This document shows positions 7,147-32,347 of a stretch of DNA of 64,000 nt, one piece after another. The DNA is from Anaerolineales bacterium (GTDB lineage Bacteria > Chloroflexota > Anaerolineae > Anaerolineales > RBG-16-64-43). Both the position numbers and the translations under genes were made by a program. Where the stretch lies: the NCBI GenBank assembly GCA_016928575.1, contig JAFGKK010000057.1, positions 93,386 through 157,385 on the forward strand, written 5' to 3'. How positions within the stretch are numbered: position 1 is the stretch's first letter; each line of letters begins with the position of its first letter. The notes under the pieces are model-generated. The model saw only the letters and a program-made list of their open reading frames with translations, did no database searches and was not told where the DNA came from.

Positions 7147-8079
7147 CTACTCGTGGACGGTGACCCGATTGCCGCCGGCCGCGATGGATTCGTGCAGGGC
7201 GATTTCGGCGGATTGCAGGAGGGCGTCCTTGGTCTCGCCCTGACTCGGAGAAGCCGCCACGCCGCAGGAGAAGGTGCATTCGATCTTTGTGCCGAGGTAA
7301 TTCAGGATGGAATTGTGGAACGCTTGGCGGAGAAGTTCCGCGCGCGGACCGGCGATGACCGCCGGGGCGCCGGGCAGGACCACGACGAAGGTGTCGGGTG
7401 CGGTCCGGCTGGCGATGTCGCCGCGGCGGATGTAGCGGTGGATCAGGGAGCTTAGGATTTTTAGGATTTCCACACCGGCTTTCTCCCCGTAGCGTTCGTC
7501 GGCCTTTTTATATTGATCCAGCCGGATTATCAGCACGCTGACCGGAATTTTGGCGCGGGAGGCGCGCGCCATTTCCAGGTCCAGCGATTCCATCAGGTAG
7601 CACCGGTTGTACAAGCCGGTCACCGGATCGCGCACGGCCTGATCCCGCAGGGAGGCGTACAATGACTGAATCTCGGTATTTTTTTCCAACAACAGTTCCA
7701 TGGCGCGCCGGTGATCCTGTTCCATATGGATCCGGTCGGAGACATCCCGCAGGAAAACGACGGAACCGGGGTTCTCCCCGGCCGCGGCGGAAAGCGGGCG
7801 GCGGCTGATCTCAATTGTCCTCTCCGGATCGTGCGGCGAGGGAACGGTTAAGGATTTTCCTCCGGAATCCGGAATCCCCTGCCCGGAGAGCCAGGGTGCG
7901 AAAACGTCCGGAAAGGGTTTTCCCGCGGCGTCGGCTTCCACCATCCGGGCCAACTCCGCCGCCGCCGGATTGATGCTCAGGATTCGGTTTTGGGCATCCA
8001 ACACGACCGCACCGTCCGTGATGGAGTCCAAAAGGGGTGTTCTTGTTGTTTTTCGTGCGGATCGGGTTTTTCCGGCCAT
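7147..8079 (-). CDS. PAS domain protein with degenerate GGDEF domain (A-site lost, RxxD I-site kept)
   Basis: PAS-like N-terminus (LLDSITDGAVVLDAQNRILSINPAA). GGDEF-fold signature DPVTGLYNRCYL...SVLIIRLDQYKK. APDTF sits where GG(D/E)EF should be, with RRGD five residues upstream. Confidence 0.85.
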   Translation of the reverse strand: MAGKTRSARKTTRTPLLDSITDGAVVLDAQNRILSINPAAAELARMVEADAAGKPFPDVFAPWLSGQGIPDSGGKSLTVPSPHDPERTIEISRRPLSAAAGENPGSVVFLRDVSDRIHMEQDHRRAMELLLEKNTEIQSLYASLRDQAVRDPVTGLYNRCYLMESLDLEMARASRAKIPVSVLIIRLDQYKKADERYGEKAGVEILKILSSLIHRYIRRGDIASRTAPDTFVVVLPGAPAVIAGPRAELLRQAFHNSILNYLGTKIECTFSCGVAASPSQGETKDALLQSAEIALHESIAAGGNRVTVHE

Positions 8080-13608: not shown

Positions 13609-14250
13609 TCAGCCGCCGGACTTTCGGATCCGCCGGACCATCCGCCGCCGCCGCCAAAGCAGCCAGCGCGTACGAAGCGCGGCAAGTCCGAATCCCATCC
13701 CGGCCATCAGGGCGCCGGCCAGAAAGGCGGCTCCCAAAGAAGTGGAATCCGGCGCGGAAGTGGAGGCCGGGCTTTCCGCCGCGGTGGGAGCCGGGAAAGC
13801 GGCCGGCGGTTGGTGCGCCGGCTGCGGCGGGACCTCCGCCGGCGTAACGGCCTCCGGCTCCGCGGTCGTCGCCAGCGGGTAAGCGCGCCGCACGCGGATT
13901 CCCCGCACGATTGATTCGCGCATCGACCCGTCCGCAAAATATGCCGCGATCCGCAGGGTGTACTCGCCCTCGCTGATCCGGGTGACGTCCCATTCCGCCA
14001 GGACGCCATTCGTCACCGGCGAGGCGCCTTCGGCAATGGGAAACCAGGTGCCGGTCGGATCGGGATCGTAGGCGAATTCCACGCGCCAACGCATCATTCC
14101 GGACGCGGCCGCCGTTCCCGAGATCTCGACCATTCCCGAAACGGTTTCACCCGCTGCGGGCGAATCAATCCGCAGGGCTTCGTCCGCCTGGAAGGAAAAC
14201 GCGGAAATCGAAAGCGCTAGAAGAAAGGCCAAACGGGCCGGAAAACGCAT
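13609..14250 (-). CDS. Secreted, C-terminally anchored protein with Ig-like ectodomain
   Basis: Signal peptide MRFPARLAFLLALSISAFS, beta-rich about 110-aa domain, Pro/Ala-rich linker, a single TM (LGAAFLAGALMAGMGFGLAAL) and an Arg-rich tail. Confidence 0.65.
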   Translation of the reverse strand: MRFPARLAFLLALSISAFSFQADEALRIDSPAAGETVSGMVEISGTAAASGMMRWRVEFAYDPDPTGTWFPIAEGASPVTNGVLAEWDVTRISEGEYTLRIAAYFADGSMRESIVRGIRVRRAYPLATTAEPEAVTPAEVPPQPAHQPPAAFPAPTAAESPASTSAPDSTSLGAAFLAGALMAGMGFGLAALRTRWLLWRRRRMVRRIRKSGG

Positions 14251-14531
14251 GACAAGCCAGTTTAATCCAAAGCATTCAGGTTTTCAAGAATTCCCAGGAA
14301 TGATCTCAAGAGCCTCAGTCGATTTCCGCCGAAGCGGCAGATCGGGGGATTGTCCTTCTGCGGCTTGCGTTTTTCCCCTATTGGGAAGAAAGGTGGAAAG
14401 GGCGGATTGCGGCTGATTTTTACGGGTGTCTTTTCGCATATAATGAATCCGAACAAACACTATCGATGCGCCGGGTTGGAAAATGGAGGATGGCAACGGA
14501 GACGGCTAGAAGGGGATCCGGTCGCCGTTGC

Positions 14532-14564
14532 CAAGCGTTTCGCCGGAGGAACGCGTTGTTTTTT
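14532..14564 (+). promoter_or_regulatory. Terminator-like hairpin in the leader of the CotH operon (possible attenuator)
   Basis: CAAGCGTT / AACGCGTTG stem (8 bp, one bulged G), 10-nt loop, then TTTTTT. Lies between a TATAAT box (14439-14444) and the CotH start. A second hairpin CCGCGG-ATGCG-CCGCGG follows at 14570-14586. Confidence 0.35.
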
Positions 14565-14654
14565 GTAAACCGCGGATGCGCCGCGGAGGATGTATCCGGA
14601 GGCGAATTCCGGATTCCATCGATGCCGAAAAAGAAAAAAAAGAGGAAAGCATCC

Positions 14655-16331
14655 ATGGCCTCTGCTAGGGAGGTCCGGCCGGCACGGATCCGCAGGGTAT
14701 CGGAGAAGGGCTGCATTATTCTGTCCCTGATCCTGGGAATAATCATCCTGCACACGGTAATGCTTCATCCCGGACCGCCGGCCGCGGCCGCGCCGGAAAG
14801 TCCGCAGGTAATCGCACAGGCGAACGCCGTGTACAACAACGGCTGGGCGCCGCTGACCGTTTATTTCAGCGGCTACGGCAGCCGCTCGCAAGGAGCGGAG
14901 ATCGTCCGTTACGAATGGGATCTCGACGGCAACGGGGCCATCGATATCGACGCCACCGCGAGCAAAGGCTATGTGCAATACCTCTATTCCAAACCCGGAC
15001 GGTATGCCGTCACGCTGCGGGTGACCGATTCGCTCGGACGCTATGCAACGGATCAGGCGACGGTGCACGTGCGCCACCCGGCTTCGAGCACCGTCGATTA
15101 CGCGGCGGTGTTCGACGACAGCCGAGTCCGCCGGATCGATATCGCCTTGAGGCAATCCGATTGGGATGCGATGTGGGCCGATCCGGAAGCCAAACTCCAA
15201 GTGCGCGCTGATGCGAACGTATTCGGGGAGGCAGTGCGGGATGTCGGGTTCCGCATGCGCGGACAATTTTCTCTGCGGACCTCCGGCCTGAAAAAACCAT
15301 GGGAGATCGACACCGATGCCTTCGTCGACGGGCAGGAATACCGAAACCTGCGTCAGTTGATGCTGCTCAACAACATCGGCGATTCGACCCTGCTCAAGGA
15401 AAAACTGGCCTACGAAATGATGTACGCCGCCGGCCTGCCGGCCAGCCATACCGCTTTCGTGGAGCTTTGGATCGACATCGCCGACGACGGCCGGCCGCCC
15501 GTCTACTGGGGAATCTATTCGCTCGTCGAGCGCGTCGACAACAAATACATCCGCAACCGCTTCGGCGCCCAGAGCCAGGGGGGCAACCTATACAAGGCGA
15601 GCCATGCCCAACGCGGACCGATGGACCTCGTGTATTACGGAGACCGAATCGAGGATTATCCCGTCCGGAACGGGCAATATGCGTACGGCAAAACATCGAA
15701 CGAGGAGGAGGCGGATTACAGCGACATCGTGGAATTGTGCCGGGTGATCGACGGCACGGCGTACGAATCTGAAGAAGATTTCCGGCGGGCGCTGGAGGGC
15801 GTGGTTAACATGGACGCCTTCCTCCGTTACTTGGCGGTGGTCACCCTCCTGGACAATTGGGATTCCTACCCTTACACGGGGAACAATTATTTCCTTTACC
15901 ACGATCCCGTCACGGACCTGTTTGAATGGATACCCTGGGACCTCGCCTGGGGCGGAAATCCGCGGATGCCGCTGTTCGAGCGGTCCGACCCGGGCTTGGT
16001 GGAGCGGGCGCCCCTCTACGATCGGGCGATGCAAATCGGGCGCTACCGCGCAAAGTATGCGGCTTACCTCGATCTGCTCCTGGTGGTTTGGTTCACCCGC
16101 GCCAAGGTCGCCGAGCGGGTGCAGTTTCTGCACCGCCAGATCGCGCCCTTCATTTCCCAATCCACCGGCGACAAGGCGTTCTTCGCGGAAGACGCCTTGT
16201 TCCCGCCCGAAGCCTTCGATCACTCCTGGGAGGCGTTGCTGGAGTTCGTCGCCGAAAGGGAAGCCTACGCACGCAGCCAACTGGTGCTGGAGGCGGAATC
16301 CGGAACTACCGCAGCCGCGGAAAAATCCTGA
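14655..16331 (+). CDS. CotH kinase-family protein with signal-anchor and PKD domain
   Basis: PKD repeat (PLTVYFSGYG...YEWDLDGNG...GRYAVTLRVTDSLG). CotH-type core (...LKKPWEIDTDAF...LLNNIGDSTLLKEKLAYEMMYAAGLPASHTAFVELWI...GIYSLVERVDNKYIRNRFG...GNLYKAS). GAGGA sits 8 nt before ATG 14655. Alternative starts are 14622 and 14466. Confidence 0.85.
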   Translation: MASAREVRPARIRRVSEKGCIILSLILGIIILHTVMLHPGPPAAAAPESPQVIAQANAVYNNGWAPLTVYFSGYGSRSQGAEIVRYEWDLDGNGAIDIDATASKGYVQYLYSKPGRYAVTLRVTDSLGRYATDQATVHVRHPASSTVDYAAVFDDSRVRRIDIALRQSDWDAMWADPEAKLQVRADANVFGEAVRDVGFRMRGQFSLRTSGLKKPWEIDTDAFVDGQEYRNLRQLMLLNNIGDSTLLKEKLAYEMMYAAGLPASHTAFVELWIDIADDGRPPVYWGIYSLVERVDNKYIRNRFGAQSQGGNLYKASHAQRGPMDLVYYGDRIEDYPVRNGQYAYGKTSNEEEADYSDIVELCRVIDGTAYESEEDFRRALEGVVNMDAFLRYLAVVTLLDNWDSYPYTGNNYFLYHDPVTDLFEWIPWDLAWGGNPRMPLFERSDPGLVERAPLYDRAMQIGRYRAKYAAYLDLLLVVWFTRAKVAERVQFLHRQIAPFISQSTGDKAFFAEDALFPPEAFDHSWEALLEFVAEREAYARSQLVLEAESGTTAAAEKS

Positions 16332-16344
16332 TGGGAGGTGCCAT

Positions 16345-17694
16345 ATGAATCGAAGAATCCCCGCCGCCTGTGCGGGCCTTTTTCTTTTTATGCTTGCAAC
16401 GGGAGGATGCGCGCGAACGGCTTTGGCCCAGGAAGCAGGATGGCAGGAATCCTTTGACGACCCGCATCTGCCGGGGTGGGAGCATTCGCCGGAGGCAATC
16501 GTCGTCGACGGAATCCTGCGCATCGGCCCGGGGAATTTCGCGGCCCGCATGGGAGGATGGGCGGATTTCGATCTAACGGTAAAAGTGAGATTCTCCGGAC
16601 CCGGCGAGACCGTAATTCTCTACCGCGAAGCCGACCGGGGGGGCTACGCACTGAGGATTCTCGTCAGCGACATGGTTCTCTTCCGGGAAATCCGGCCGGA
16701 TCAACAGCGGGAATTGGACCGGTCCGCGGGATGGACGCCGTCGGAAGGCGCATGGATGGATTTCCGCATCACGGTCCAACAGGGCAGGCACTCCATCGCC
16801 GTAGACGGGAACGAAATCCTTTCGGCCGAAGACCCCGAACCGCTTGATCCGGGCATCATCGTTTTCGCCTCGCACGGTGAACGAACGACCGAAGTGGACG
16901 AGATATCTCTGGCGATTTTGCATTCGGAAGGGGGCGGGGAGCCGCCCGTCGGTTCCGAAGGCCAAACCGCGGTTCTGCCGACCGCGACGCCGGAACCGAC
17001 GGCCGCCCCGAACGCATTGCAGGAATTGTGGGCGGAGGTCACCGCTGGCCAGGGGGCTCCACTCGAGACGGGAGTGTTTGCGGTTAACCTGCTGTTGTCC
17101 GTGGTTTTTTCTTTTCTCCTCAGCCGGGTTTACATCTATTGGGGATCCTCCCTTTCCAACCGGAGAAAATTCGCCGCCAACTTCATGCTGGTGACCGTGA
17201 CGACCACGTTCATCATCCTGGTGGTTCGGTCCTCCGTGGCCCTCTCGCTAGGCTTGGTCGGAGCGCTTTCGATCATCCGGTTCCGCACGGCGGTCAAGGA
17301 GCCGGAGGAGCTGGCGTACCTGTTCTTCGCCATCAGTCTGGGAATCGGATTGGGGGACAACCAGCGCTTGGTCACTCTCTTAAGTTTTATGGTGGTGGTC
17401 CTGCTGATCGGCCTGGCGCGATTGTTGCGGCAAACGCAGGCGGATATCAACCTGCATCTGACCGTTTCCAGCCGTGAGCCCGGAAAAATCGGAATGAGCC
17501 GGGTCCGCGAGGTGCTTGAGAAGCACTGCGCCAAACTCCGGCTGATCCGATACGACGAGAATCCCGATCAGGCCGAGACATCGTTCGTCGTGGAATTCCG
17601 CCATATTTCGGATCTCGAGCAGGCGCGCGCTTCCCTGCGGGAACTCTCGCCGGAGATGGAGATTTCCTTTCTCGACAACAAGGGGATTTGGTAG
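16345..17694 (+). CDS. DUF4956-family membrane protein with N-terminal lectin/LamG-like ectodomain
   Basis: GGGAGG 6 nt before ATG 16345 (the track ORF over-extends to 15922 across the CotH gene). Signal peptide MNRRIPAACAGLFLFMLATGGC. Membrane core ...SLGLVGALSIIRFRTAVKEPEELAYLFFAISLGIGLG is characteristic of DUF4956. Confidence 0.8.
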   Translation: MNRRIPAACAGLFLFMLATGGCARTALAQEAGWQESFDDPHLPGWEHSPEAIVVDGILRIGPGNFAARMGGWADFDLTVKVRFSGPGETVILYREADRGGYALRILVSDMVLFREIRPDQQRELDRSAGWTPSEGAWMDFRITVQQGRHSIAVDGNEILSAEDPEPLDPGIIVFASHGERTTEVDEISLAILHSEGGGEPPVGSEGQTAVLPTATPEPTAAPNALQELWAEVTAGQGAPLETGVFAVNLLLSVVFSFLLSRVYIYWGSSLSNRRKFAANFMLVTVTTTFIILVVRSSVALSLGLVGALSIIRFRTAVKEPEELAYLFFAISLGIGLGDNQRLVTLLSFMVVVLLIGLARLLRQTQADINLHLTVSSREPGKIGMSRVREVLEKHCAKLRLIRYDENPDQAETSFVVEFRHISDLEQARASLRELSPEMEISFLDNKGIW

Positions 17695-18420
17695 ATGGCG
17701 CGCCGAGACTCTGCGTCCGGGAACATCCAGGAGTATACCCGGCTGCGCTCCTTCCGATACGAACGCAAGTTCCTTTCCGAGGAGTTGCTTCCGCGCCAGG
17801 TGACGGCCATCGTGCGCTCGCATCCGCTGATGTGCCGTGCGCCGTATCCGCCGCGGCAGATCAACAGCCTCTACCTGGATACCGCCGACATGGACAATTA
17901 CAACGACAACGTTTCCGGAGCTGCGCAGAGGCGCAAGGTGCGGCTGCGCTGGTACGGAACGATGGACGGAATGATCGAGCGGCCGATGTTGGAATTCAAG
18001 GTTAAATACGGCTTGGTGGGGAAGAAGCTATCCTACCCGATGGCGCCATTCGTGTTGGACGAGCACTTCAACCGCCGCGTATTCCAGGAGCTCGCCGACC
18101 GTTCCTCCCTTCCGGAGACCGTCCGAGACGACCTCCGCAGACTTGCTCCCGTCCTGCTTAACTGCTATCAACGCAGCTATTTCGCCGCGCTCGAGGAACG
18201 GTTCCGGATCACGGTCGATTCCCAACAGGTCTTTTGGAGGATCCACGGTCCCTTCCGGAATTCGCTGCTACACAGGCAGCAAAACCCCCGCGACGTAATC
18301 GTGGAATTAAAATACGCGGTCGGGGAAGAGCCGCAGGCCGACCGGGCCGCGGGGTACTTCCCCTTTCGCATCATGCGGAATTCCAAATACGTGCAGGGAA
18401 TTGAACGGGTGTATTTTTAA
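17695..18420 (+). CDS. VTC-domain (polyphosphate-polymerase-like, triphosphate-tunnel fold) protein
   Basis: ATG directly abuts the preceding TAG. FRYERKFLSEE...INSLYLDTADMDNYNDN...RRKVRLRWYG...MLEFKVKYG matches the VTC-domain pattern. Confidence 0.8.
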   Translation: MARRDSASGNIQEYTRLRSFRYERKFLSEELLPRQVTAIVRSHPLMCRAPYPPRQINSLYLDTADMDNYNDNVSGAAQRRKVRLRWYGTMDGMIERPMLEFKVKYGLVGKKLSYPMAPFVLDEHFNRRVFQELADRSSLPETVRDDLRRLAPVLLNCYQRSYFAALEERFRITVDSQQVFWRIHGPFRNSLLHRQQNPRDVIVELKYAVGEEPQADRAAGYFPFRIMRNSKYVQGIERVYF

Positions 18421-18496
18421 TTTAAAGGACGGGACGACAGGCGAAGGTCGTACCGACGATTCCGACGTGCAATGCCGAAGCAACCGGTATTGTGGT

Positions 18497-18538
18497 CCGC
18501 GGCCTGTCCAAATCCTGATCTGAGGCCGGCGGTTTTTT
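18497..18538 (+). terminator. Rho-independent terminator closing the CotH-DUF4956-VTC operon
   Basis: CCGCGGCCT / AGGCCGGCGG stem (9 bp, one bulge) followed by TTTTTT. Confidence 0.65.
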
Positions 18539-18762
18539 GTACGATAAAATCGGGAAGAACCGCGAAGAATCCCCACCCAACAGGATGATGAAAAAAGAAA
18601 AATGGTGGTTGAGTAGCCCCAGCGCTCTTCTGGGGCGTATCAAAAATAAAAAAATGGGATCTCGATACGCCCGCACAGAGGACGGGCACCCCCGGCCTCG
18701 CGCCGCGAAGCGGGGCGGGGCTCAACCGCCTTGTTCAGCACTCTAGGAGAATCGAGGCCGCC

Positions 18763-21700
18763 TCAGCGCGGAAGCTCCAGAAACACCTTCACCACCTGCG
18801 GATCGAATTCCTGGCCCGACCGGTCGCGGATATAGTCGAGGGCCTTTTCCTCCGGCCAAGCGGGACGGTACGGGCGGTCCGAAGTGAGCGCATCGAAGAC
18901 GTCCGCCACGGCGAACACCCGCGCGGCCAGCGGAATCTGTTCGCCTTTCAGCCCGCGCGGATACCCCGAGCCGTCCCACCGTTCGTGGTGGCAATACGGG
19001 ATGTCGAGGGCGGGGCGCAGGAATTCGATCGGCATCAGCATCTCGTAGGCCAGGCCGGGATGCCGCTGCATGACCGCCTTCTCCTCCGCGGTCAGGCTGT
19101 CGGGTTTGTTGAGGATGGAATCGGGGACACCGAGTTTCCCCAAATCGTGGAGCAAAGCCCCGCGCCGGATGTGCACCAGCTCCTCGTTGGGGATCCCAAT
19201 CTTTTTAGCCAACTGAAGCGTGGTTTCCGTCACCCGTTGGCTGTGGCCTTCGGTTTCCTTGTCGCGCAGGTCCATCGCCCGCGACCAGCCCTCGAGGGTG
19301 CTGTCGTACGCCCGCGCAAGCTGGGTGTTCACGCCCTGCAAGTCGGAAAAAAGCGTGGCGTTGTCGATCGCGATCGCCGCCTGGCCGGAAAGGGTGTTGA
19401 GGAAATCCAGCCAATCGTCTTTGGGGACGAACGGAGTCCGGTGGAACAGCTCCAGGATCCCCTTGACCTGGCCCTTGGCGATCAGCGGAACCGAGGTGTG
19501 GGTGACGAAACCCTCACCGGCCACCCGTTCGGGTTTGGCCAGCGGGTCGTTCGAGGTGATCGCGACGTGGCTGATGCGGCGCTCGATGGCGGCCCGCCCC
19601 GCGTGCCCTTCCCCGAAGCGCAGGCGGGTGGCGGCGATCCCCTTTCCCCGAAATCCGCGCCCGGCGAAATATTCCAGCTGCATCATCCGCGGATTGCACA
19701 GCAGGACCGCGGCCGCGTCCACCCGCAGCTGGTTGACGACCTGATCGAGGAAGAAATCCATCGTCACGGATAAATTCAGGCTGGCCGTGATTGCGGTGTC
19801 GATCGCGTGCAGGGCGCTCAAGCGCTCCAGCTGATGCCGGGTCTGTTCGTACAATTGCACGCGCTGGATCGCCGTGCCGGCCATCTCCGCTATGGTAACC
19901 AGCAGATTCACTTCTTCCGATGTAAACTTGCGGGGCTGCGGAACAGCAAGGCAGATCAGGCCGATGCTGTCCTGCCCAGACCGGACCGGAAGGCAGATTC
20001 CCCCCCAGCCCGGCGGGAACGAATCCCTGCGAAGGACCCCGAGATCGGGGTCCCGGGCGAATTCCTCGATGAGATGCACCTGATTCGCGCCGAAAATCGC
20101 GCCGGGGAACCCCTCGCCGGGCTTGGGATTGGTCTTCGGTAGATTGGAAAACCAGCCGCAGTCGGCCGCACGCCCGAGCGTTCCCGCGGACGAATCGAAC
20201 AGCCAGACGGCGCCGGCGTCGCACTCCACCGCGGAAAGCGATTCGTCCAGCAGGCGCGGAATCATTTCCTCGAGGGTCGCCGAGCTGCGCAGGATGACCG
20301 AGACGCGGTTCATCCCCTCCAATTCCCTCACCCGCTTGCGGATTTCCTCCTCCGACCGCTTGCGCTCCGTGATGTCCTGATTGACCCCGTAGGTTTTAAC
20401 GGTCTTTCCCTCTGTATCCTTGACGATGAAAAACCGGACGGAGATGTATCCCGGACTGCCATCGGCGAACCGGATACGGTGTTCCAGGGTCCGGCTGAAG
20501 GCCGGATCCGGGGTTTCGAGCGCCTTTTGGGTTTCCGCGCGGACCAAATCCATGTCGTCCGGATGGACGAACCGCGCGGCGTATTCGGCGGAGGTCATCG
20601 TGTAGCCGCCGGCCTCGGACGCGGTGGTCTTGAAGAGCGCATAGAACTGGTCGTTGAACGTGAACAAGTCCTTTTCTACGTCGTATTCCCACGGCCCCAG
20701 GCGGGCGATGACCGCGGCATTGGCGAACAGAGCTTCACTGTGGCGGAGGGCTTCCTCCGCGCGCCTGCGATCGGTGATGTCTTCGTAGGTGCCGAGGACG
20801 CCGATGACGGCGCCGACGCTGTCGCGCAGCGGCACTTTGTTCGTTCTGGCCCACGCCGTGGTCCCGTCGGCTTGCCGGAAGGATTCGATGATGTCGTTTT
20901 CCGCGGCGCCGGACGCGATGATTTTTTGGTCGTACGAACGGAACGATTCCGCCTGTTTTTTTTCCCACGGAAGGTCGTAATCGCTTTTCCCGACGACTTC
21001 CTGCGAGGATTTCACGCCGATGTATTTCAGAAATGTCCGGTTCGCGCCGAGGTAGCGCAGATCCCGGTCTTTCCAGAATACGGCTGAGGGGATTGAATCC
21101 AACACGGTCTGCAGCATGGCGCGAGAAATCCGCAGCTCCTCTTCCGCCTTTTGGCGCTCGGTGACGTTGCGGATGATTGCCGTTGCAGAGACGCCTTCCC
21201 TGGATTTCCATGTGGATATGCTGATCTCGGCGGGAAACTCGGAACCGTCCCGGCGGATGCCCGCCGCTTGGAAAGGATGCTGGCCGAGGATCAATTGGCC
21301 GGTGACGGCGGGCGGCCGGGGCTGCTTTTCGAATTCCCTCCGGAACCGCTCCGGCAGAATTTGCATCACCGGCTTGCCGATCATTTCGGATTCGGGATAT
21401 CCGAACATGGTTTCGGCCGCATTGTTCCATTGGCGGATGACTCCCTGCGCGTCGTAGGTGACGATGGCGTCTCCGGCCGTCTGAACCACCGAACGCAGTT
21501 GCTCCTCGCTGCGGACCAGCGCCATCTCCGCGCGCTTGCGCTCCGCGACCTCTTGCTGAAGGACCCGGTTGGCTTCCTCCAACTGGAGGGCTTTTTCCTC
21601 CAACTTGCGGATCAGGACCTCGTCGTATTCCTTGGTGATATCCGCCTGGCGGGGATTGGGCGTGCGGACGAGCGCCAGGCCGTCCTCTTCCGCCCTGCGC

Positions 21701-22059
21701 ATCACTTCCCGGATCCGGGCGGAAAACGGTTCCGGTTCGCTGGGTTTGAGGATAAAGTCGTCCGCCCCCATGTCCCTCGCCAAGCGTTCATCCTTTTCAT
21801 CGGTGTAGGTGGCGGTGTATACGACGAAGGGGACGGCCTTGAGCTGCGCGTCGGCCTTCCAACGGCGGAGGAGGGTGTAGCCGTCCATCACGGGCATCAG
21901 CAGATCGGAGATGACGAGCGCCGGAGGATTCTGGCGGGCTTTGATCAGCGCCTCGGCGCCGTGAACGGCTTCCTCCACCTCGTATCCCTGGCTCTGCAAC
22001 AGGGTGCGCAGGAGGTAGCGGCTTTCTTCCTTGTCGTCCGCGATCAGCACTTTTTTCAT
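18763..22059 (-). CDS. Response regulator with PAS and GAF sensor modules and HD-GYP c-di-GMP phosphodiesterase output
   Basis: REC (LIADDKEE...VISDLLMP...ILKP). By eye, three PAS-like and two GAF-like segments. C-terminal HD-GYP (HDLGKLGVP...HHERWDGSGYPRGL...DVFDALTSDRPYR). Confidence 0.9.
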   Translation of the reverse strand: MKKVLIADDKEESRYLLRTLLQSQGYEVEEAVHGAEALIKARQNPPALVISDLLMPVMDGYTLLRRWKADAQLKAVPFVVYTATYTDEKDERLARDMGADDFILKPSEPEPFSARIREVMRRAEEDGLALVRTPNPRQADITKEYDEVLIRKLEEKALQLEEANRVLQQEVAERKRAEMALVRSEEQLRSVVQTAGDAIVTYDAQGVIRQWNNAAETMFGYPESEMIGKPVMQILPERFRREFEKQPRPPAVTGQLILGQHPFQAAGIRRDGSEFPAEISISTWKSREGVSATAIIRNVTERQKAEEELRISRAMLQTVLDSIPSAVFWKDRDLRYLGANRTFLKYIGVKSSQEVVGKSDYDLPWEKKQAESFRSYDQKIIASGAAENDIIESFRQADGTTAWARTNKVPLRDSVGAVIGVLGTYEDITDRRRAEEALRHSEALFANAAVIARLGPWEYDVEKDLFTFNDQFYALFKTTASEAGGYTMTSAEYAARFVHPDDMDLVRAETQKALETPDPAFSRTLEHRIRFADGSPGYISVRFFIVKDTEGKTVKTYGVNQDITERKRSEEEIRKRVRELEGMNRVSVILRSSATLEEMIPRLLDESLSAVECDAGAVWLFDSSAGTLGRAADCGWFSNLPKTNPKPGEGFPGAIFGANQVHLIEEFARDPDLGVLRRDSFPPGWGGICLPVRSGQDSIGLICLAVPQPRKFTSEEVNLLVTIAEMAGTAIQRVQLYEQTRHQLERLSALHAIDTAITASLNLSVTMDFFLDQVVNQLRVDAAAVLLCNPRMMQLEYFAGRGFRGKGIAATRLRFGEGHAGRAAIERRISHVAITSNDPLAKPERVAGEGFVTHTSVPLIAKGQVKGILELFHRTPFVPKDDWLDFLNTLSGQAAIAIDNATLFSDLQGVNTQLARAYDSTLEGWSRAMDLRDKETEGHSQRVTETTLQLAKKIGIPNEELVHIRRGALLHDLGKLGVPDSILNKPDSLTAEEKAVMQRHPGLAYEMLMPIEFLRPALDIPYCHHERWDGSGYPRGLKGEQIPLAARVFAVADVFDALTSDRPYRPAWPEEKALDYIRDRSGQEFDPQVVKVFLELPR

Positions 22060-22445
22060 GCGGATTTGCCCTCTTCGGAGTTTTTCAGGTATCGGCTGAT
22101 TTCCTCCGCGAAGGTTTCCGGACGAATGGGTTTTTCGATGTAGCCGTTGCAGCCGGCGGCGATGGTTTTCTCACGGTCGCCGGTCATGGCGTAGGACGTG
22201 ACGGCCACGATCGGCGTATCCTTGAGCGCCGGGTTTTCCCGCAGGGACCGGGCGACGGCGTAGCCGTCCATCCCGGGCAGTTGGATGTCGAGCAGGATCA
22301 GGTGCGGCAGGAGCCGCCCGGCCTGTTCGATCCCCGCCGGCCCGTCGGCCGCTGAAAGCACCCGGTGCCCGTGTTTTTCCAGCAGAAACGTGGCCAGGTA
22401 GCGGTTTTGCTCGTTGTCTTCGATCAGCAGGATCGTGTGAGTCAT
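22056..22445 (-). CDS. Single-domain CheY-like response regulator
   Basis: MTHTILLIEDNEQNRYL...LILLDIQLPGMDG...VTSYA...YIEKP. ATG 22445 overlaps the kinase stop (ATGA) and its own stop overlaps the next start (ATGA). The track start 22502 lies inside the kinase gene. Confidence 0.9.
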   Translation of the reverse strand: MTHTILLIEDNEQNRYLATFLLEKHGHRVLSAADGPAGIEQAGRLLPHLILLDIQLPGMDGYAVARSLRENPALKDTPIVAVTSYAMTGDREKTIAAGCNGYIEKPIRPETFAEEISRYLKNSEEGKSA

Positions 22446-24961
22446 GGATTCGGCGTCTCCTTCGCCGGCAGGAAAAGCGTAAAGGTGCTGCCTTTGCCCC
22501 ACTCGCTCTCGGCGCGGATCTCGCCGCCGAGCAGATCCGCCAGCCGGCGGCAGATGGCCAGGCCCAAACCGGTGCCTTCGTGCTGGCGGGTCAGGCCGGA
22601 GTCGATTTGGTGGAAGGGTTGGAATAAATCCTGCAGGTCACCGGGTCGGATTCCGATGCCGGTGTCGGCGATGGAAACCTGCAGGGCGGTTTGCGGCGCA
22701 CGATATGGGAACGGCGCGAACGAAGCCGTCAGCGATATCACCCCCCGGTCGGTGAATTTGACCGCGTTGTTCAGCAGGTTGATCAGGATCTGCTCGACCC
22801 GCCGGACATCGCTGACGAAGACTCCGATCTCCGGCGCCGGATCGGCCTGCAGCGCCAAGCCCTTCTTCTCCGCCAGCGGCCGGACGAGGCCGACGACCTT
22901 TTCCAGCGAAGCGCGCAGATCGAACGGCTCCGGATGGATCTCCAGCTGGCCGGCTTCGATCTTGGAGATGTCGAGCACGTCGTTGATCAGCGCCAGGAGA
23001 TGCCGGGCGCTGTCGCGGACCATGGTGAGTTGTTTGGTTTGTTCCGCGGTCAGAGGTCCGGCCATTTCCTGCAGGAGGATCCCGGTAAACCCGATGATCG
23101 AATTCAACGGCGTGCGCAGCTCGTGCGACATGGTCGCCAGAAAGGCGGATTTCAAGCGGTCCGCCGCCTCGGCGCGGTCCTTCGCCACCGCCAATTCGGC
23201 CGTCCTCTCGGCCACGCGCTGTTCGAGGGTGGCGTTCAATTCCCGGATGGCTTCCTCCGCCTTTTTCCGTTCGCTGATGTCGGTGCCGACGCTCAGAATT
23301 TCGGAGATCCGGCCTTGTTCGTCTTTGACCATCCGGTTGGTCCATGCGATCCACACCCGCTCGCCGTTGCGGCGCATGTTTTCGTTGATGTTCTGTTCAA
23401 ACGCCGACGGGTCCGCTAGCACCTGTTCCATCAGGCCCCCCAGATCGCGGCCGTGGCTGTCGACGGCCGGGACGATCGTTCCGACGACCGGCCGGCCGAA
23501 GATCTCCGCCGAGGAATATCCGAAGAAGCGCAGGCCGAATTCGTTCAGGAAAAGGATCTTTCCGTCGCGCGACCAGCGCAGAATGATGCTGTTGGCGTGT
23601 TCGACCAACTCGCGGTACTTGCGTTCGCTTTCGGCCAGCCGCGCCTCGGAATCCTTGCGCCGGGTGATGTCGCGGATGATCATGCTGGTGCGCGTTTCCC
23701 CCTGCGCGTCCCGGAAGAGGGCGGTGGATATTTCGGCCGGAAACGCCGCTCCGTCCTTCCTGCGAAGCATGAGCTCGCCGTGGAACTCGCCTTGGTTCAG
23801 CCTTTCCGCCAGCGCCTGCGCAAGCTGCGGGTCCGAATCGTCCGCCACGCCGTTCCTTCCGGCGGCGAGCAATTCCTCCTCCGTCATCCCGAAGATGCGG
23901 CAGGCGGCGGGATTTGCCGAGAAGATCCTGCCGTCGGGCGCCGTGAGCAGGATGCCGTCGGTGCTGGTACGGATCAACAGCCGGTAGCGCTCCTCGCTTT
24001 CCCGCAGGGCTTGGTTGGCCGACCGAAGATTTTTCGTGCGCGACCGGACCTGGCCTTCCAAAAGCAAAATCCAGCCGGCCCCGGCGGCGAGGAGGACTCC
24101 GGCGATTCCGATCCCCCAATACACGGCTTGCGGCACGTGGTAGACGGGGGCCGATTGCGTCCAGCGGCTGAGAGTCCGGTAATACGGTGAATTGGGCTCG
24201 GCGATCCATGCCGCCAAATGCCGGTCGACCGCTTGCAGGATATCTTGGTTCCCCCCCTCGGCCGTCGCAAAATATAAGGACACGGGGTTAAACACGATCG
24301 AGGTTTTGGCCAGCCCGTATTCCCGGAAGAAATAATCCCCAAAAAAGTTATTGGCGATGGCCGCGTCGGCGTCCCCGTCGGCTGTTCGTTGGAACGCTTC
24401 CGTGAAGCTCCCGGCCGGAACGATCGTCACATCGAAACCAAATCCCCGCATGTATTGATCGAACACCGTTTGCTGGATGGAGCCTTCCAGAACCGCGATC
24501 CGCTTTCCGGCCAGGTCATCGTATCCCGTGATGTCCAGGCCGGATACGGCGTAAACCTGAGACCAACTTTCCAGGATCGGCGTAAGATGGAAATCGAACT
24601 TCCGATCGCGCTCGTCCGAATAGGCGACGTCCGGCATAAGGTCGATCTCGCCCGATTCCAGCATGGCCAGGCAGTCGGCCCAGGCGCATGGCACGAAGGT
24701 CAGGGCCCAACCCTCCTGCTCGCCGATCGCCCGGATCAGGTCTACGAAAATCCCCGCCGGAGCTCCCTCCCCGTCCGTGAATACCTTGGGCGGGTTTTCA
24801 TACAGGCCAACCCGGAAAGCGTTCGGGGCGGCGCCCGCCGGAGCGGCGGCGGACGCAACCGAAGACAGACAAAGGATGCCGGTCAGGACCCACAATCGCA
24901 TCCTCCGCATTCCAGAGAGAGGACGAGGAAACCCCGCAGGGAAAGCTTGGTCCATCTTCAT
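22442..24961 (-). CDS. Sensor histidine kinase with periplasmic solute-binding (SBP_bac_3-like) domain and PAS modules
   Basis: Signal/TM, amino-acid-SBP-like ectodomain (FRVGLYENPPKVF...IDLMPDVAY...), TM, PAS repeats, HisKA (ATMSHELRTPLNSIIG), HATPase (GTGLGLAI...). Start may be ATG 24910 (MRRMRLWVL...). Confidence 0.9.
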   Translation of the reverse strand: MKMDQAFPAGFPRPLSGMRRMRLWVLTGILCLSSVASAAAPAGAAPNAFRVGLYENPPKVFTDGEGAPAGIFVDLIRAIGEQEGWALTFVPCAWADCLAMLESGEIDLMPDVAYSDERDRKFDFHLTPILESWSQVYAVSGLDITGYDDLAGKRIAVLEGSIQQTVFDQYMRGFGFDVTIVPAGSFTEAFQRTADGDADAAIANNFFGDYFFREYGLAKTSIVFNPVSLYFATAEGGNQDILQAVDRHLAAWIAEPNSPYYRTLSRWTQSAPVYHVPQAVYWGIGIAGVLLAAGAGWILLLEGQVRSRTKNLRSANQALRESEERYRLLIRTSTDGILLTAPDGRIFSANPAACRIFGMTEEELLAAGRNGVADDSDPQLAQALAERLNQGEFHGELMLRRKDGAAFPAEISTALFRDAQGETRTSMIIRDITRRKDSEARLAESERKYRELVEHANSIILRWSRDGKILFLNEFGLRFFGYSSAEIFGRPVVGTIVPAVDSHGRDLGGLMEQVLADPSAFEQNINENMRRNGERVWIAWTNRMVKDEQGRISEILSVGTDISERKKAEEAIRELNATLEQRVAERTAELAVAKDRAEAADRLKSAFLATMSHELRTPLNSIIGFTGILLQEMAGPLTAEQTKQLTMVRDSARHLLALINDVLDISKIEAGQLEIHPEPFDLRASLEKVVGLVRPLAEKKGLALQADPAPEIGVFVSDVRRVEQILINLLNNAVKFTDRGVISLTASFAPFPYRAPQTALQVSIADTGIGIRPGDLQDLFQPFHQIDSGLTRQHEGTGLGLAICRRLADLLGGEIRAESEWGKGSTFTLFLPAKETPNP

Positions 24962-29963: not shown

Positions 29964-31409
29964 TCATCCATCGGTCAGAAAGAACTCCTGCTCCAAGCCG
30001 ATCCAATCGCGGAGTGCGTTGGTCTGCATCCTCCCGGCCAGGATCGGGTGCAGAGCTTGGATCTGTTCCGCCGCCTGCAAAGCCAGCACCCGAACGGCGG
30101 CGTGCGCGTGGTCCGAGGACCGCAAAGCGCAGAAGTGGAACGCCTCGCGCAGATTCATGCCCAGCACCAGCCGCCGCAAAAAACCGTTGGGGACGGCGTA
30201 CGCCGCCACCTCGGGGCCGAAATCCCGGCGCAGGTTTTCGTAGGCGCCGGCCGCCTGACTCATCGCCTGTTGATATTCTGCCAGGAACCCGGCCGTTTGA
30301 AATCCGCGCGGGATGACGTAACCGAGGCGGCAGGTCAGGGGGCTGGGAGTCTGGCTGGCGATGCGGTGGCGTTTGACTTCGAAATACGCGCCCTGATCCA
30401 TCACGGCTTCAAACACGTATTGCACGTATTCCAATTCGCGCACCGGGGAATCATGGTCCCCGAGGAGTTCCAACAGCGCCTCGCCGAGGGCGCGTTTCTC
30501 CTCGGGGGGAGCCCTGCGGATCCGGGCCAGGCTTTCCTCGTACGCCCATCCGCAGAAGCGAACTCCGGCGGCGGCCAAGACTCGGTCCTCGGAGTCCGCT
30601 TCGCCGTGGACGAGTTTCATCCAGCCGCGCGGCGGGCTCTCCGCTTCCGCGGTGGGCGTTTCCAAGCCGGCGGACGCGCGGCGGTACCGCTCCGGGGTGT
30701 CGCGCAGGTAGGCGTTCTCCTCGGCGTATTTCACCAAGGTCGGCACTTCCTCCAGCGCCGCCTGCCTGATCTCCGACCCGATCGCCCGCACCTCCCGCAG
30801 AGGGTGTGAAAGCATTTTCCGCAGCGCGTGCTCCAGCGCCCGCGCGTTGATCGTGATTCCGACGTTGGCCAGGGAGGCGGCCGGGAGGAGGTAGCGGCAG
30901 ATATCGGCGTAGCTCGAGCGGATCCGCCCTTCCCAGCGAGCCTCGCTTTCGCCGGCTTGCCGCGGATGACGAGCCCGGATCTGGTCGCCGACCGCCTGCA
31001 GTGAACGCTGGTAGGCGTCAAGCAGCCGGCCGCAGGTTTCCCGAAAGGGCGCCTCGGCCGGGCTTCCGGCGATCTCGGGTGGAACGACGAATGCTTCGCT
31101 CGACCACTTCTGATAGCGGGTGCTTTTTTCGGTAAAGGACGCCAGCCGGTTGGACTCGATGCATTCGATCGCCAGGCGCGAGACGTTCTCCGCGGCTATA
31201 TGCAGCACCGCATGCTCGGCGATGGAGGAATGGCCGTATCCGACCACCCATTTCTGGTGGAATTCGGCCGAGCGGCTGTCGCTCAACTCGGCGGCGGTGC
31301 GGTCGAAGGATTCGGGGGAGCGCGAAGTTTTCGCGAATGCCACCGCAATCGTCTCCGGCGCGAGGTCCCGCGCCCGCAGGAGATACACCCTTCGCATTTT
31401 CCCGCTCAT
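29964..31409 (-). CDS. thyX: Two-domain (tandem) ThyX-like FAD-dependent thymidylate synthase
   Basis: Domain 1: GHSSIAEHAVLHI...SNRLASFTEKSTRY. Domain 2: ...YFEVKRHRIASQTPSPL...ALRSSDHAH. ATG 31409 overlaps the ribF stop (ATGA). The track over-extends to 31988. Confidence 0.75.
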   Translation of the reverse strand: MSGKMRRVYLLRARDLAPETIAVAFAKTSRSPESFDRTAAELSDSRSAEFHQKWVVGYGHSSIAEHAVLHIAAENVSRLAIECIESNRLASFTEKSTRYQKWSSEAFVVPPEIAGSPAEAPFRETCGRLLDAYQRSLQAVGDQIRARHPRQAGESEARWEGRIRSSYADICRYLLPAASLANVGITINARALEHALRKMLSHPLREVRAIGSEIRQAALEEVPTLVKYAEENAYLRDTPERYRRASAGLETPTAEAESPPRGWMKLVHGEADSEDRVLAAAGVRFCGWAYEESLARIRRAPPEEKRALGEALLELLGDHDSPVRELEYVQYVFEAVMDQGAYFEVKRHRIASQTPSPLTCRLGYVIPRGFQTAGFLAEYQQAMSQAAGAYENLRRDFGPEVAAYAVPNGFLRRLVLGMNLREAFHFCALRSSDHAHAAVRVLALQAAEQIQALHPILAGRMQTNALRDWIGLEQEFFLTDG

Positions 31410-32347
31410 GTCTCCTCCCGCAGCAAACCCCGCGCCCGCGCCGCGTCGGAGGCCATCTGCCGGCGGAGCGAGTCGGCGTCCGCGAATTTCCGCTCTTCGC
31501 GTAGACGTTCCACGAATTCCACCCGCAAGTCGGATCCGTACAGGTCGCCGTCGAAATCCAGGAGATGGGTCTCCACCGTCGCGGCGTGAACGGATGCGTT
31601 GACGAACGTCGGACGGAGTCCGACGCTGGTCACGGCGGGATGCCGAGCGCCCGCTGTTTCGGCTCGGGTGGCATAGACGCCGTAGGCGGGAATCACGATC
31701 TCGGGCCGGAGAGCGATGTTGGCTGTCGGCATGCCCAGGCAGCGCCCGCGCCCCGCGCCGTGGACCACCGTTCCGGAAAGCGTGAAGCGCCGGCCGAGCA
31801 GGTCCGCGGCCAGCCGCAGGTCGCCTTGCGCCAGCGCCTCGCGGATCCAGCTGGAGGAGACCGGCCTGCCGCGGTGTTCGAGCGGAGGAACCACATGCAG
31901 CGCAAAGCCGAAGGCGCCGCTTTGTCCGGTGAGGTAGGCGACATCGCCTTCGCGCCGGCAGCCGACGGCGAAGGATGGACCGCACCAAAGCCCGCGAAGT
32001 CCGAGCCGGGTTTGCAGCATCCGCAGGAATTCCGCCGCTCCGATTCGTGAAAACGCGGCGTCAAAAGGCTGTAGGATGAGAGCTTCAAGCGGCAGCGTGC
32101 GCAACAGGGCGAGCCGCTCTTCCAGCGGCATCAAATAGCGGATCGCGGCCGGTTCGCCGGGCGGCCGCAGGACGGCCCGCGGATGGGGGAAGAAGGTTAG
32201 AACCGCCGGCGGAGCTCCAGCCCGGGCGGCGGCTTCCAGCATGCGGTCCAGGAGACGGCGGTGGCCGCGGTGCAGACCGTCGAAGGATCCCGGGGCGAGG
32301 TACGCTCCTTGGAGCGCGGCGCCGTCGATCGATTCAAAGTATTGCAT
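31406..32347 (-). CDS. ribF: Bifunctional riboflavin kinase / FMN adenylyltransferase
   Basis: GSFDGLHRGHRRLL (nucleotidyl-transferase N-terminus) and a C-terminal riboflavin kinase (GRCLGMPTANI...THLLDFDGDLYG). Confidence 0.95.
   Translation of the reverse strand: MQYFESIDGAALQGAYLAPGSFDGLHRGHRRLLDRMLEAAARAGAPPAVLTFFPHPRAVLRPPGEPAAIRYLMPLEERLALLRTLPLEALILQPFDAAFSRIGAAEFLRMLQTRLGLRGLWCGPSFAVGCRREGDVAYLTGQSGAFGFALHVVPPLEHRGRPVSSSWIREALAQGDLRLAADLLGRRFTLSGTVVHGAGRGRCLGMPTANIALRPEIVIPAYGVYATRAETAGARHPAVTSVGLRPTFVNASVHAATVETHLLDFDGDLYGSDLRVEFVERLREERKFADADSLRRQMASDAARARGLLREET

Follow-up and report, generated by a model that had tools for sequence, protein, structure and literature searches.

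A CotH–DUF4956–VTC gene trio in an Anaerolineales bacterium, a conserved prokaryotic module with a possible role in extracellular phosphorylation

We analysed a stretch of 64,000 nucleotides (nt) from an Anaerolineales bacterium (Chloroflexota; GenBank assembly GCA_016928575.1, contig JAFGKK010000057.1, positions 93,386 to 157,385 of the forward strand; hereafter the window), in which three consecutive genes encode a PKD-CotH protein, a lectin-DUF4956 membrane protein and a VTC-type triphosphate-tunnel protein. These three genes form an operon-like unit that is co-inherited across phyla, and the window trio represents the form taken in Chloroflexota (Anaerolineales) by a widespread and self-contained module, here stand-alone and with a lectin domain fused to DUF4956. 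It is in our opinion very probable that the three products constitute one envelope-directed functional unit. Our preferred reading of its function, to which we attribute a probability of about 0.45, is that the module phosphorylates a surface or exo-polysaccharide, the VTC protein making polyphosphate, DUF4956 passing it across the membrane and CotH carrying out the transfer. The association of the three families has already been reported; the stand-alone context, the lectin-DUF4956 and PKD-CotH architectures and the lineage are what differs here.

Conservation of the gene trio

The initial annotation had delimited three same-strand open reading frames (ORFs) with gaps of 13 and 0 nt, and direct reading of the sequence matches both the frames and the gaps. 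Indeed, the first gene ends with a TGA at 16331, the ATG of the second stands at 16345, and the TAG of the latter (17692-17694) directly abuts the ATG of the third at 17695, which itself ends with a TAA at 18420. The prediction that they form one operon is in line with these abutting junctions and with the adjacency conserved in all 70 informative loci described below.

A genome scan with the VTC profile yielded 80 loci, the six-frame ORFs of which were searched with iterated hidden Markov models (HMMs) seeded by the window proteins. The CotH, DUF4956 and VTC genes were adjacent on one strand in all of the 70 untruncated loci, as had been expected if the set were co-conserved in other genomes, and the remaining 10 end at a contig edge before the missing gene would appear; a seeming exception (L022) was dismissed as an artefact of masked bases. 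These VTC-anchored loci span at least eight phyla, their hosts being found among Chloroflexota, Acidimicrobiia, Planctomycetota, Verrucomicrobiota, Bacteroidota and Acidobacteriota, together with a Syntrophomonadaceae metagenome-assembled genome (MAG) and Methanosarcina. A trio is likewise carried by Pelolinea submarina (L064). Three gene orders were encountered (CotH-DUF4956-VTC, DUF4956-CotH-VTC and DUF4956-VTC-CotH), the DUF4956-VTC junction is of at most 8 nt in most loci when the nearest in-frame start is taken, and the three families diverge in a correlated manner (pairwise divergences, r = 0.62-0.81). Moreover, the trio is duplicated as a unit in the Anaerolineae MAG co234_bin63, two contigs of which (L034 and L035) each carry a full set.

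That three genes without a common function should have come to lie side by side by chance has, in view of these data, a practically negligible probability: it is refuted by the adjacency in 70 of 70 untruncated loci, in bacterial phyla and an archaeon and in three gene orders, and both the stop and start codons that abut or overlap and the two complete copies in a single MAG speak against it as well.

The archaeal case is a complete DUF4956-CotH-VTC trio on the chromosome of Methanosarcina sp. Mfa9 (L060, 6570-10696), for which acquisition by horizontal transfer is the likeliest explanation. It is surrounded by genes for a polysaccharide deacetylase, a FemAB-like protein and a dockerin/beta-helix surface protein.

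Fusion of a lectin domain to DUF4956 and of a PKD domain to CotH is a trait of a Chloroflexota-type clade. Outside this clade, DUF4956 proteins have about 228 amino acids (aa) and CotH proteins 730-990 aa, the latter carrying malectin, EF-hand, pectate-lyase-like beta-helix, LTD or CHB_HEX_C/Fn3_assoc domains. No VTC-DUF4956 or VTC-CotH fusion, of the kind that would point to physical coupling, was found in about 90 loci, in the top 150 VTC representatives (all of 170-290 aa) or in the top 120 DUF4956 proteins. As to family size, about 1,400 VTC clusters were counted at 50% identity (E values up to 1e-30), and over 8,000 matches for DUF4956.

A fourth conserved member was also considered and rejected: among the 128 direct flanking genes of related loci, the commonest Pfam family (CBM_11) reaches only 5 of 128 and is confined to one Anaerolineae subclade. 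As the neighbours are this heterogeneous, the trio is a self-contained module without a fixed fourth partner. In five loci (L030, L035, L036, L037 and L040), the gene for a CBM_11 protein of about 555 aa lies directly upstream on the same strand and overlaps the cotH start, and this protein may be a lineage-specific fourth member in that subclade.

Predicted properties of the three proteins

The family assignments made in the initial annotation (CotH, PKD, DUF4956 and VTC) were all recovered by HMMs above the Pfam cut-offs. Likewise, the topology that it had proposed, with an outward-facing CotH, a soluble cytoplasmic VTC protein and a multi-pass DUF4956 protein bearing a lectin ectodomain, agrees with hydropathy and with the AlphaFold2 models, and the catalytic residues that it had called for are present in both enzymes (D403, N411 and D429 in CotH, and seven Vtc4 tunnel residues in the VTC protein).

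The third protein matches the VTC family (PF09359) over almost its whole length (E = 3.6e-25; 89.3 bits for a cut-off of 23; profile positions 2-234 of 235, residues 21-239 of 241). No SPX domain was found by Pfam in its 241 aa, which hold the VTC domain alone; the JGI name ‘SPX domain protein’ is contradicted by this result and was discarded. The protein has no hydrophobic segment (maximum hydropathy 0.6), and its model displays an eight-strand tunnel fold (predicted local distance difference test, pLDDT, of 81.8). The closest solved folds in Foldseek are those of yeast Vtc2 and Vtc4 (3g3o and 3g3r; E of about 5e-11, template-modelling scores of 0.60-0.63), with YgiF, thiamine triphosphatase and class IV adenylate cyclases ranking behind. 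Judged by sequence and model, gene 3 encodes a cytoplasmic triphosphate-tunnel enzyme, to which the polyphosphate polymerase subunits of yeast are the nearest in both respects.

In the family-profile alignment, R83, R85, K102, K111, Y158, R160 and R171 of the window protein correspond to R264, R266, K281, K294, Y359, R361 and R373 of Vtc4, respectively. Vtc4 R264, R266, K281, Y359 and R361 belong to the triphosphate-binding set, mutation of which lowers polyphosphate synthesis, and K294 and R373 are additional basic residues of the tunnel (10.1101/2023.01.27.525886). All seven aligned residues are at least 93% conserved among 82 VTC homologues, as are R21/E23/K25, R79/K81, E100, E204/K206 and S230/K231, and the conserved residues follow the i/i+2 spacing expected of inward-facing strand positions. 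Four further Vtc4 residues may have counterparts in the model, namely K200, E426, S457 and K458, which we match tentatively to K25, E204, S230 and K231. The last is of particular weight, K458 being what distinguishes Vtc4, which is active, from the inactive Vtc2/3; the conserved S230-K231 pair stands before the C-terminal helix, where S457-K458 would be expected.

It is decidedly improbable, in our estimation, that the VTC protein is some other tunnel enzyme (a triphosphatase, a nucleotide cyclase or similar) and that DUF4956 exports ATP or a small phosphoryl compound for an ATP-dependent CotH. The fold is indeed common to YgiF, thiamine triphosphatase and class IV adenylate cyclases, the equivalence to the discriminating Vtc4 K458 is one that we infer, and DUF4956-CotH pairs without VTC exist in some genomes. 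However, Vtc2 and Vtc4 are clearly the nearest relatives in structure and sequence, the seven tunnel residues of Vtc4 are aligned and highly conserved, and the Ser-Lys pair occupies its expected place.

The second protein combines DUF4956 (PF16316; E = 6.7e-16; 58.9 bits for a cut-off of 30.6) with a 3keto-disac_hyd/DUF1080 match at residues 32-179 (E = 9e-10), and its homologues are named ‘DUF4956 domain-containing protein’ at NCBI. Hydropathy predicts a signal peptide followed by a multi-pass core, with Lys/Arg-rich loops on the cytoplasmic side. The best Foldseek matches of the ectodomain are CBM66 carbohydrate-binding modules (4.9e-9); the matches of this model describe the lectin domain only, as the membrane core is of low confidence. 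Within the core, the motif S296-S297-ALSLGLVGALSI-x-R312-F-R314-x-A-x-K318-EPEEL is at least 93% conserved among 78 homologues from many phyla, and it is near-invariant from Chloroflexota to Bacteroidota, Planctomycetota, Verrucomicrobiota and Methanosarcina, whereas overall identity is just 40-45%.

Positions 17220-17370 are matched at 90-95% identity by contigs of other organisms in the sediment metagenome from which the window comes, at a far greater depth (55, as against about 2-12). As the invariant core of DUF4956 is encoded there, conservation reaches the nucleotide level among co-occurring relatives.

The DUF4956 homologue of Streptococcus intermedius was described as an MgtC-like transmembrane region plus an ACT domain (PMC12345266), and the MgtC label stems from this study and from JGI names. 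Compared at the level of sequence, the membrane-core model being of low confidence, MgtC/YhiD (PF02308) gave no match in the window protein, and its best match, in one of four DUF4956 homologues, had an E value of 0.23 and 12 bits for a cut-off of 31. A relation between the DUF4956 core and the eukaryotic VTC membrane domain was not detected either, since only DUF4956 itself and chance-level families appeared at E values up to 10.

The first protein matches CotH (PF08757) over profile positions 2-321 of 322 (E = 4.5e-53; 181 bits for a cut-off of 23.8). Its residues 1-19 include six Lys or Arg and precede the single hydrophobic segment; with one N-terminal segment behind an Arg/Lys-rich N terminus, the PKD and CotH domains are therefore placed outside. 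The protein also matches the solved CotH of Bacillus cereus (5jd9; 4.4e-15), D403, N411 and D429 being aligned with the NFD...HN...PWD residues of that structure, which are D228, N233 and D251 in B. subtilis. D228Q and D251A inactivate the B. subtilis kinase (PMC7821199). The catalytic Asp, the Asn and the metal-binding Asp are thus intact in the window protein, which is kinase-like in its sequence.

Among 72 CotH homologues, K213, E249, N411 and D429 are at least 96% conserved, and the position of D403 is occupied by Asp in 61 and by His in 11. The latter (loci L050, L053, L060, L062, L063, L065, L068, L074, L078, L081 and L083) come from Planctomycetota, Bacteroidota, Acidobacteriota and Methanosarcina, and mostly retain the Lys, Glu, Asn and metal-binding Asp. 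They are long forms of 870-990 aa, those that were scanned having a beta-helix or a weak CotH match only. His in place of the catalytic Asp may be the mark of a different chemistry.

Genomic context and proposed function

To counter the bias of VTC anchoring, six DUF4956 proteins from other phyla were looked up. CotH was adjacent in all six loci and VTC in four. The three-gene set originally put forward thus stands as regards the CotH-DUF4956 pair, which is constant, and has to be relaxed as regards VTC, which is missing nearby in the other two (L085, 6001-9340, and L088, 7001-10382, both pairs lying in polysaccharide clusters). All six loci are indeed located inside such clusters, with family 2 and family 4 glycosyltransferases (GT2, GT4), Wzy, a Wzx-type flippase and polysaccharide deacetylase, to which are added a phosphodiesterase-family gene and a sulfotransferase with ATP sulfurylase and adenosine 5'-phosphosulfate (APS) kinase. 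Sulfation genes occur near the trio or the pair in two loci, a proximity that would fit, by analogy, a ‘decoration module’ in which VTC makes the donor, DUF4956 delivers it and CotH transfers it. The module is repeatedly associated with glycans, through glycan-binding domains and polysaccharide clusters, and the knock-outs of S. intermedius tie it to Pel.

On this basis, we propose that cell-surface material, most probably a surface or exo-polysaccharide, receives phosphate from the module. Polyphosphate would be built from ATP by the VTC enzyme on the inner side of the membrane, and an oligomer of DUF4956 would pass this polyphosphate, or another phosphoryl donor, to the other side. There, CotH, which has no ATP outside the cell, would phosphorylate an acceptor that the PKD and lectin domains hold in place. 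The loci devoid of VTC, together with a silent VTC knock-out in S. intermedius, lead us to regard the DUF4956-CotH pair as the obligate core, with VTC as a frequent dedicated supplier that may be replaced by other sources of polyphosphate.

Several observations weigh against this proposal. First, Vtc4 K200, E426, S457 and K458 were left unaligned by HMMER, the C-terminal quarter of the protein remaining so whether a single sequence or the family profile was used. Secondly, the membrane core of DUF4956 has a pLDDT below 50, so that the pore is a conjecture. Thirdly, Bacillus CotH is an ATP-dependent Ser/Thr protein kinase, as is every characterised CotH (PMC7821199), and with the family known solely in this capacity, both a polyphosphate donor and a glycan acceptor are conjectural. 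Fourthly, the VTC mutant of S. intermedius aggregated as the wild type, no defect being reported (PMC12345266), and two of the six DUF4956-anchored loci lack a VTC gene within 6-7 kb. Furthermore, no glycan-synthesis genes adjoin the trio in the window or in its Chloroflexota relatives, three metatranscriptomes from the source sediment study gave no contigs matching the window, and the literature yielded no enzymology of bacterial VTC-domain, DUF4956 or non-spore CotH proteins.

Polyphosphate could itself be the product, in the form of a surface-bound or released layer, with CotH capping its chain ends or anchoring them to protein or glycan, and with the polymer acting as an anionic partner for cationic Pel; we consider this unlikely. 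Pel is partly deacetylated, and hence cationic. Such a layer would share all of the structural evidence cited for phosphate transfer (Vtc4 alignment, Foldseek matches and DUF4956 model), and the association of the trio with Pel, a polymer rich in N-acetylgalactosamine, is in its favour (10.1101/768473, PMC12345266). A 2026 preprint describes, in the B. cereus group, an extracellular polyphosphate that is independent of PPK, made by an unknown pathway and resistant to exopolyphosphatase, which suggests blocked ends; however, according to its authors, B. cereus has no VTC4 homologue (10.64898/2026.08.04.742738). The loci without VTC and the S. intermedius knock-out without reported phenotype likewise argue against a polyphosphate layer, and a CotH-type enzyme that ligates polyphosphate would have no precedent.

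The surroundings of the window trio bear on another alternative. The cassette is embedded among housekeeping genes. Upstream lie the genes of an Ig-like protein, pth and mfd, with glgC and pgm also on that side; related loci contain no homologue of the divergent Ig-like gene (13609-14250). Downstream, 18763-24961 (-) encodes the HD-GYP response regulator and a solute-binding/PAS histidine kinase, and nusA, infB and truB are found farther away. Genes of cyclic di-GMP (c-di-GMP) signalling are thereby present on both sides of the cassette (GGDEF and HD-GYP proteins, table 1). They could point to a regulatory module in which CotH, as a protein kinase, controls the envelope or exopolysaccharide machinery, DUF4956 and VTC tuning the phosphate or energy status without any export. 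This is the reading proposed for the pel-linked genes (10.1101/768473, PMC12345266), and it accords with the Ser/Thr protein kinase activity of all characterised CotH (PMC7821199) and with the ACT-like cytoplasmic domain of the DUF4956 model, which suggests ligand sensing. We nevertheless judge it quite unlikely. Indeed, the c-di-GMP and two-component genes show no conserved adjacency to the trio among related loci, the similarity to MgtC is unsupported by sequence (best E of 0.23, in one homologue), and a membrane segment that is near-invariant across phyla suits a transport or catalytic site more than a sensor. CotH is placed outside the membrane, where ATP is unavailable; therefore, even a purely regulatory kinase would need an exported donor.

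Table 1. Features of the cassette and its flanks (positions in the window).
Feature	Position	Strand	Evidence
PAS-GGDEF protein, upstream of the cassette	7147..8079	-	
Gene 1, PKD + CotH, membrane-anchored, predicted outward-facing, 558 aa	14655..16331	+	Pfam CotH/PKD; match to 5jd9
N-terminal signal-anchor (predicted), residues 19-37	14709..14765	+	Kyte-Doolittle 19-residue mean of 2.58
PKD domain, residues 65-138	14847..15068	+	Pfam PKD_4 (1.1e-9); collagenase PKD structures matched
CotH kinase-like domain, residues 200-538	15252..16268	+	Pfam
Shine-Dalgarno-like GGGAGGTG, inside the 13-nt gap 5' of gene 2	16333..16340	+	Sequence reading
Gene 2, signal peptide + lectin-like ectodomain + DUF4956 + C-terminal domain, 449 aa	16345..17694	+	Pfam; AlphaFold2; homologues of 446-449 aa
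Concanavalin/CBM66-like jelly-roll ectodomain, residues 32-179	16438..16881	+	AlphaFold2 (pLDDT ~90); Foldseek
DUF4956 membrane core, five predicted helices, residues 242-362	17068..17430	+	AlphaFold2 (low pLDDT); hydropathy
C-terminal cytoplasmic beta-alpha-beta-beta-alpha-beta (ACT/ferredoxin-like) domain, residues 369-444	17449..17676	+	AlphaFold2 (pLDDT ~85)
Gene 3, soluble VTC-type triphosphate-tunnel protein, 241 aa	17695..18420	+	Pfam VTC; AlphaFold2; Foldseek; Vtc4 alignment
Hairpin + T6, possible but unsupported intrinsic terminator	18497..18538	+	In sequence; 17-nt loop
Convergent response-regulator/PAS/GAF/HD-GYP protein, directly downstream	18763..22059	-	

The boundaries of the genes deserve some comment. 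The start of cotH at ATG 14655 is supported by AAGAGGAAAG upstream of it and by an aligned ATG in relatives, and the same evidence makes a longer ORF from 14466 a disfavoured candidate. For gene 2, ATG 16345 seems the better start, with a strong ribosome-binding site and homologues of 446-449 aa; the product of the gene caller (P0121, 423 aa) begins at an internal TTG and loses the signal peptide. The terminator that had been said to close the operon exists as a hairpin followed by T6, but it was not called by the terminator scan, and its folding (-19 kcal/mol, z = -0.28) is no better than that of shuffled sequence. The end of the operon is better defined by the convergent HD-GYP gene than by this hairpin.

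The 404-nt leader of cotH (14251-14654) holds a hairpin, GCGTTTCGCCGGAGGAACGC at 14535-14564 (+), followed by a T-run, which by its appearance could be an attenuator; it matches no known riboswitch and is absent from relatives. The latter share a TGTATAAT box 60-100 nt 5' of the cotH ATG, the counterpart of which in the window is CATATAAT at 14437-14444. A search of Rfam over 14150-18800 returned nothing credible (a single sub-threshold match, E = 0.78), no NCBIfam model matched any of the three proteins, and none of them matches the defence-system models of PADLOC, which gives no sign of anti-phage defence. Elsewhere in the window, a 674-aa ORF at 29964-31988 (-) matches the ThyX (Thy1) domain over two stretches and is about twice as long as the usual flavin-dependent thymidylate synthase.

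Comparison with known systems

Bacterial polyphosphate is attributed almost wholly to PPK1 and PPK2, and the module may bear on the route by which it reaches the surface or the medium, as well as on the manner in which an extracytoplasmic kinase obtains its phosphoryl donor. The module is of relevance to polyphosphate and exopolysaccharide research, being large, present in many phyla and at least one archaeon, and repeatedly found inside polysaccharide clusters; the present analysis moreover yields specific residues of the trio for mutation. In its broadest form, the hypothesis is that of a three-part prokaryotic machine for extracellular phosphorylation, in which VTC makes polyphosphate, DUF4956 threads it and CotH uses it as a donor, or as a polymer to be transferred, on surface polysaccharides or proteins. 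Such a machine would be a counterpart of the eukaryotic VTC complex, whose catalytic part might descend from it, and a PPK-independent route to extracellular polyphosphate; taken as a whole, we hold this wider hypothesis to be conceivable yet doubtful. If true, it would represent a new way of decorating exopolymers and biofilm matrices, and would give the eukaryotic VTC system a prokaryotic relative amenable to direct tests in Escherichia coli or Streptococcus.

The trio had been presented at the outset as uncharacterised. We found no biochemical description of it; the trio itself, however, is already on record in pel loci and in NELoc-2 of Clostridium perfringens. Whitfield et al. (2020) reported cotH, a polyphosphate polymerase gene, DUF4956 and a DUF4832 accessory gene contiguous with pelDEADAFG in streptococci and clostridia, a cyclase/phosphodiesterase replacing DUF4832 at the pel loci of bifidobacteria (10.1101/768473). 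In S. intermedius, SIR_1594, SIR_1593 and SIR_1592 are cotH, the polyphosphate polymerase gene and DUF4956, respectively, and deletion of DUF4956 or CotH altered the level of Pel and, in sputum medium, lowered aggregation by more than half (PMC12345266). The same 2025 study states that this arrangement is not found outside pel loci (PMC12345266). The loci described here contradict this statement: the trio occurs outside pel loci and is not a pel-specific accessory set.

Both sets share the three Pfam families, contiguous and on the same strand, a CotH predicted to be secreted, a DUF4956 membrane protein with a cytoplasmic ACT-like domain and a link to extracellular polysaccharide. In contrast to the Gram-positive pel set, there are no pel genes near the window cassette or the 70 related loci, and no Pel family is shared among the 128 neighbours. 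DUF4832 is absent from the window, where a convergent HD-GYP gene, not a conserved neighbour, lies downstream. The window DUF4956 protein begins with a signal peptide and bears a lectin/CBM66-like ectodomain, its CotH partner is membrane-anchored with a PKD domain, whereas the pel CotH has a C-terminal FN3 domain, and the host is a sediment Anaerolineales bacterium.

In NELoc-2 of C. perfringens, a VTC protein, a ‘tubulin/FtsZ-like’ membrane protein and CotH are encoded next to a chitin-synthase-like glycosyltransferase gene (PMC2879425), and we infer that the ‘tubulin’ gene is a DUF4956 gene. The resemblance lies in the grouping of a VTC-domain protein, a cytoplasmic-membrane protein of about 225 aa and CotH beside a polysaccharide synthase; the difference, in the duplication of the VTC/membrane pair around a resolvase, in a pathogenicity locus.

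With the CotH-CotB/CotG system of Bacillus, which phosphorylates the spore coat, the window trio shares the kinase family, the equivalents of D228 and D251 and an extracytoplasmic type of layer. No CotB/CotG-like Ser-rich substrates are encoded near the window trio, however, and Anaerolineae are not known to form spores. Bacillus CotH acts in the cytoplasm of the mother cell, where ATP is present. The cotBGH locus consists of three genes only (PMC7821199), whereas the partners of the window CotH are DUF4956 and VTC.

Some kinases of the Fam20 type, which act in the secretory pathway, phosphorylate glycans. CotH is distantly related to them (PMC7821199), and the likeness resides in a kinase-like fold acting outside the cytoplasm, with a precedent for sugar acceptors in the wider group; by analogy, a glycan acceptor for CotH may be conjectured. 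Fam20-type kinases nonetheless benefit from ATP imported into the Golgi lumen, a supply that has no equivalent at the exterior of prokaryotes.

The last comparison is with the eukaryotic VTC complex (Vtc4, Vtc3 or Vtc2, and Vtc1), in which the synthesis of polyphosphate is coupled to its translocation through the membrane, and to which the reading of the trio as a ‘split VTC analogue’ referred. This reading is plausible, provided that the system is taken as an analogue and not as a split homologue, DUF4956 having no sequence relation to the Vtc membrane domain. The two have in common a homologous tunnel domain, in which the triphosphate-binding residues are kept, and the genetic coupling of this domain to a multi-pass membrane protein with conserved Arg/Lys in its cytoplasmic loops. 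These residues recall the positive rings at the mouth of the Vtc channel (10.1101/2023.01.27.525886). On the other hand, the window trio is devoid of SPX and of a Vtc1-type membrane domain, its tunnel protein is soluble and a separate polypeptide, its target is the cell membrane, so that export would go outside, and its third partner, extracellular and kinase-like, has no eukaryotic counterpart. The module accordingly lies outside the eukaryotic VTC complex; its catalytic domain is of the VTC/tunnel family, and the functional likeness between the two is put forward as a hypothesis.

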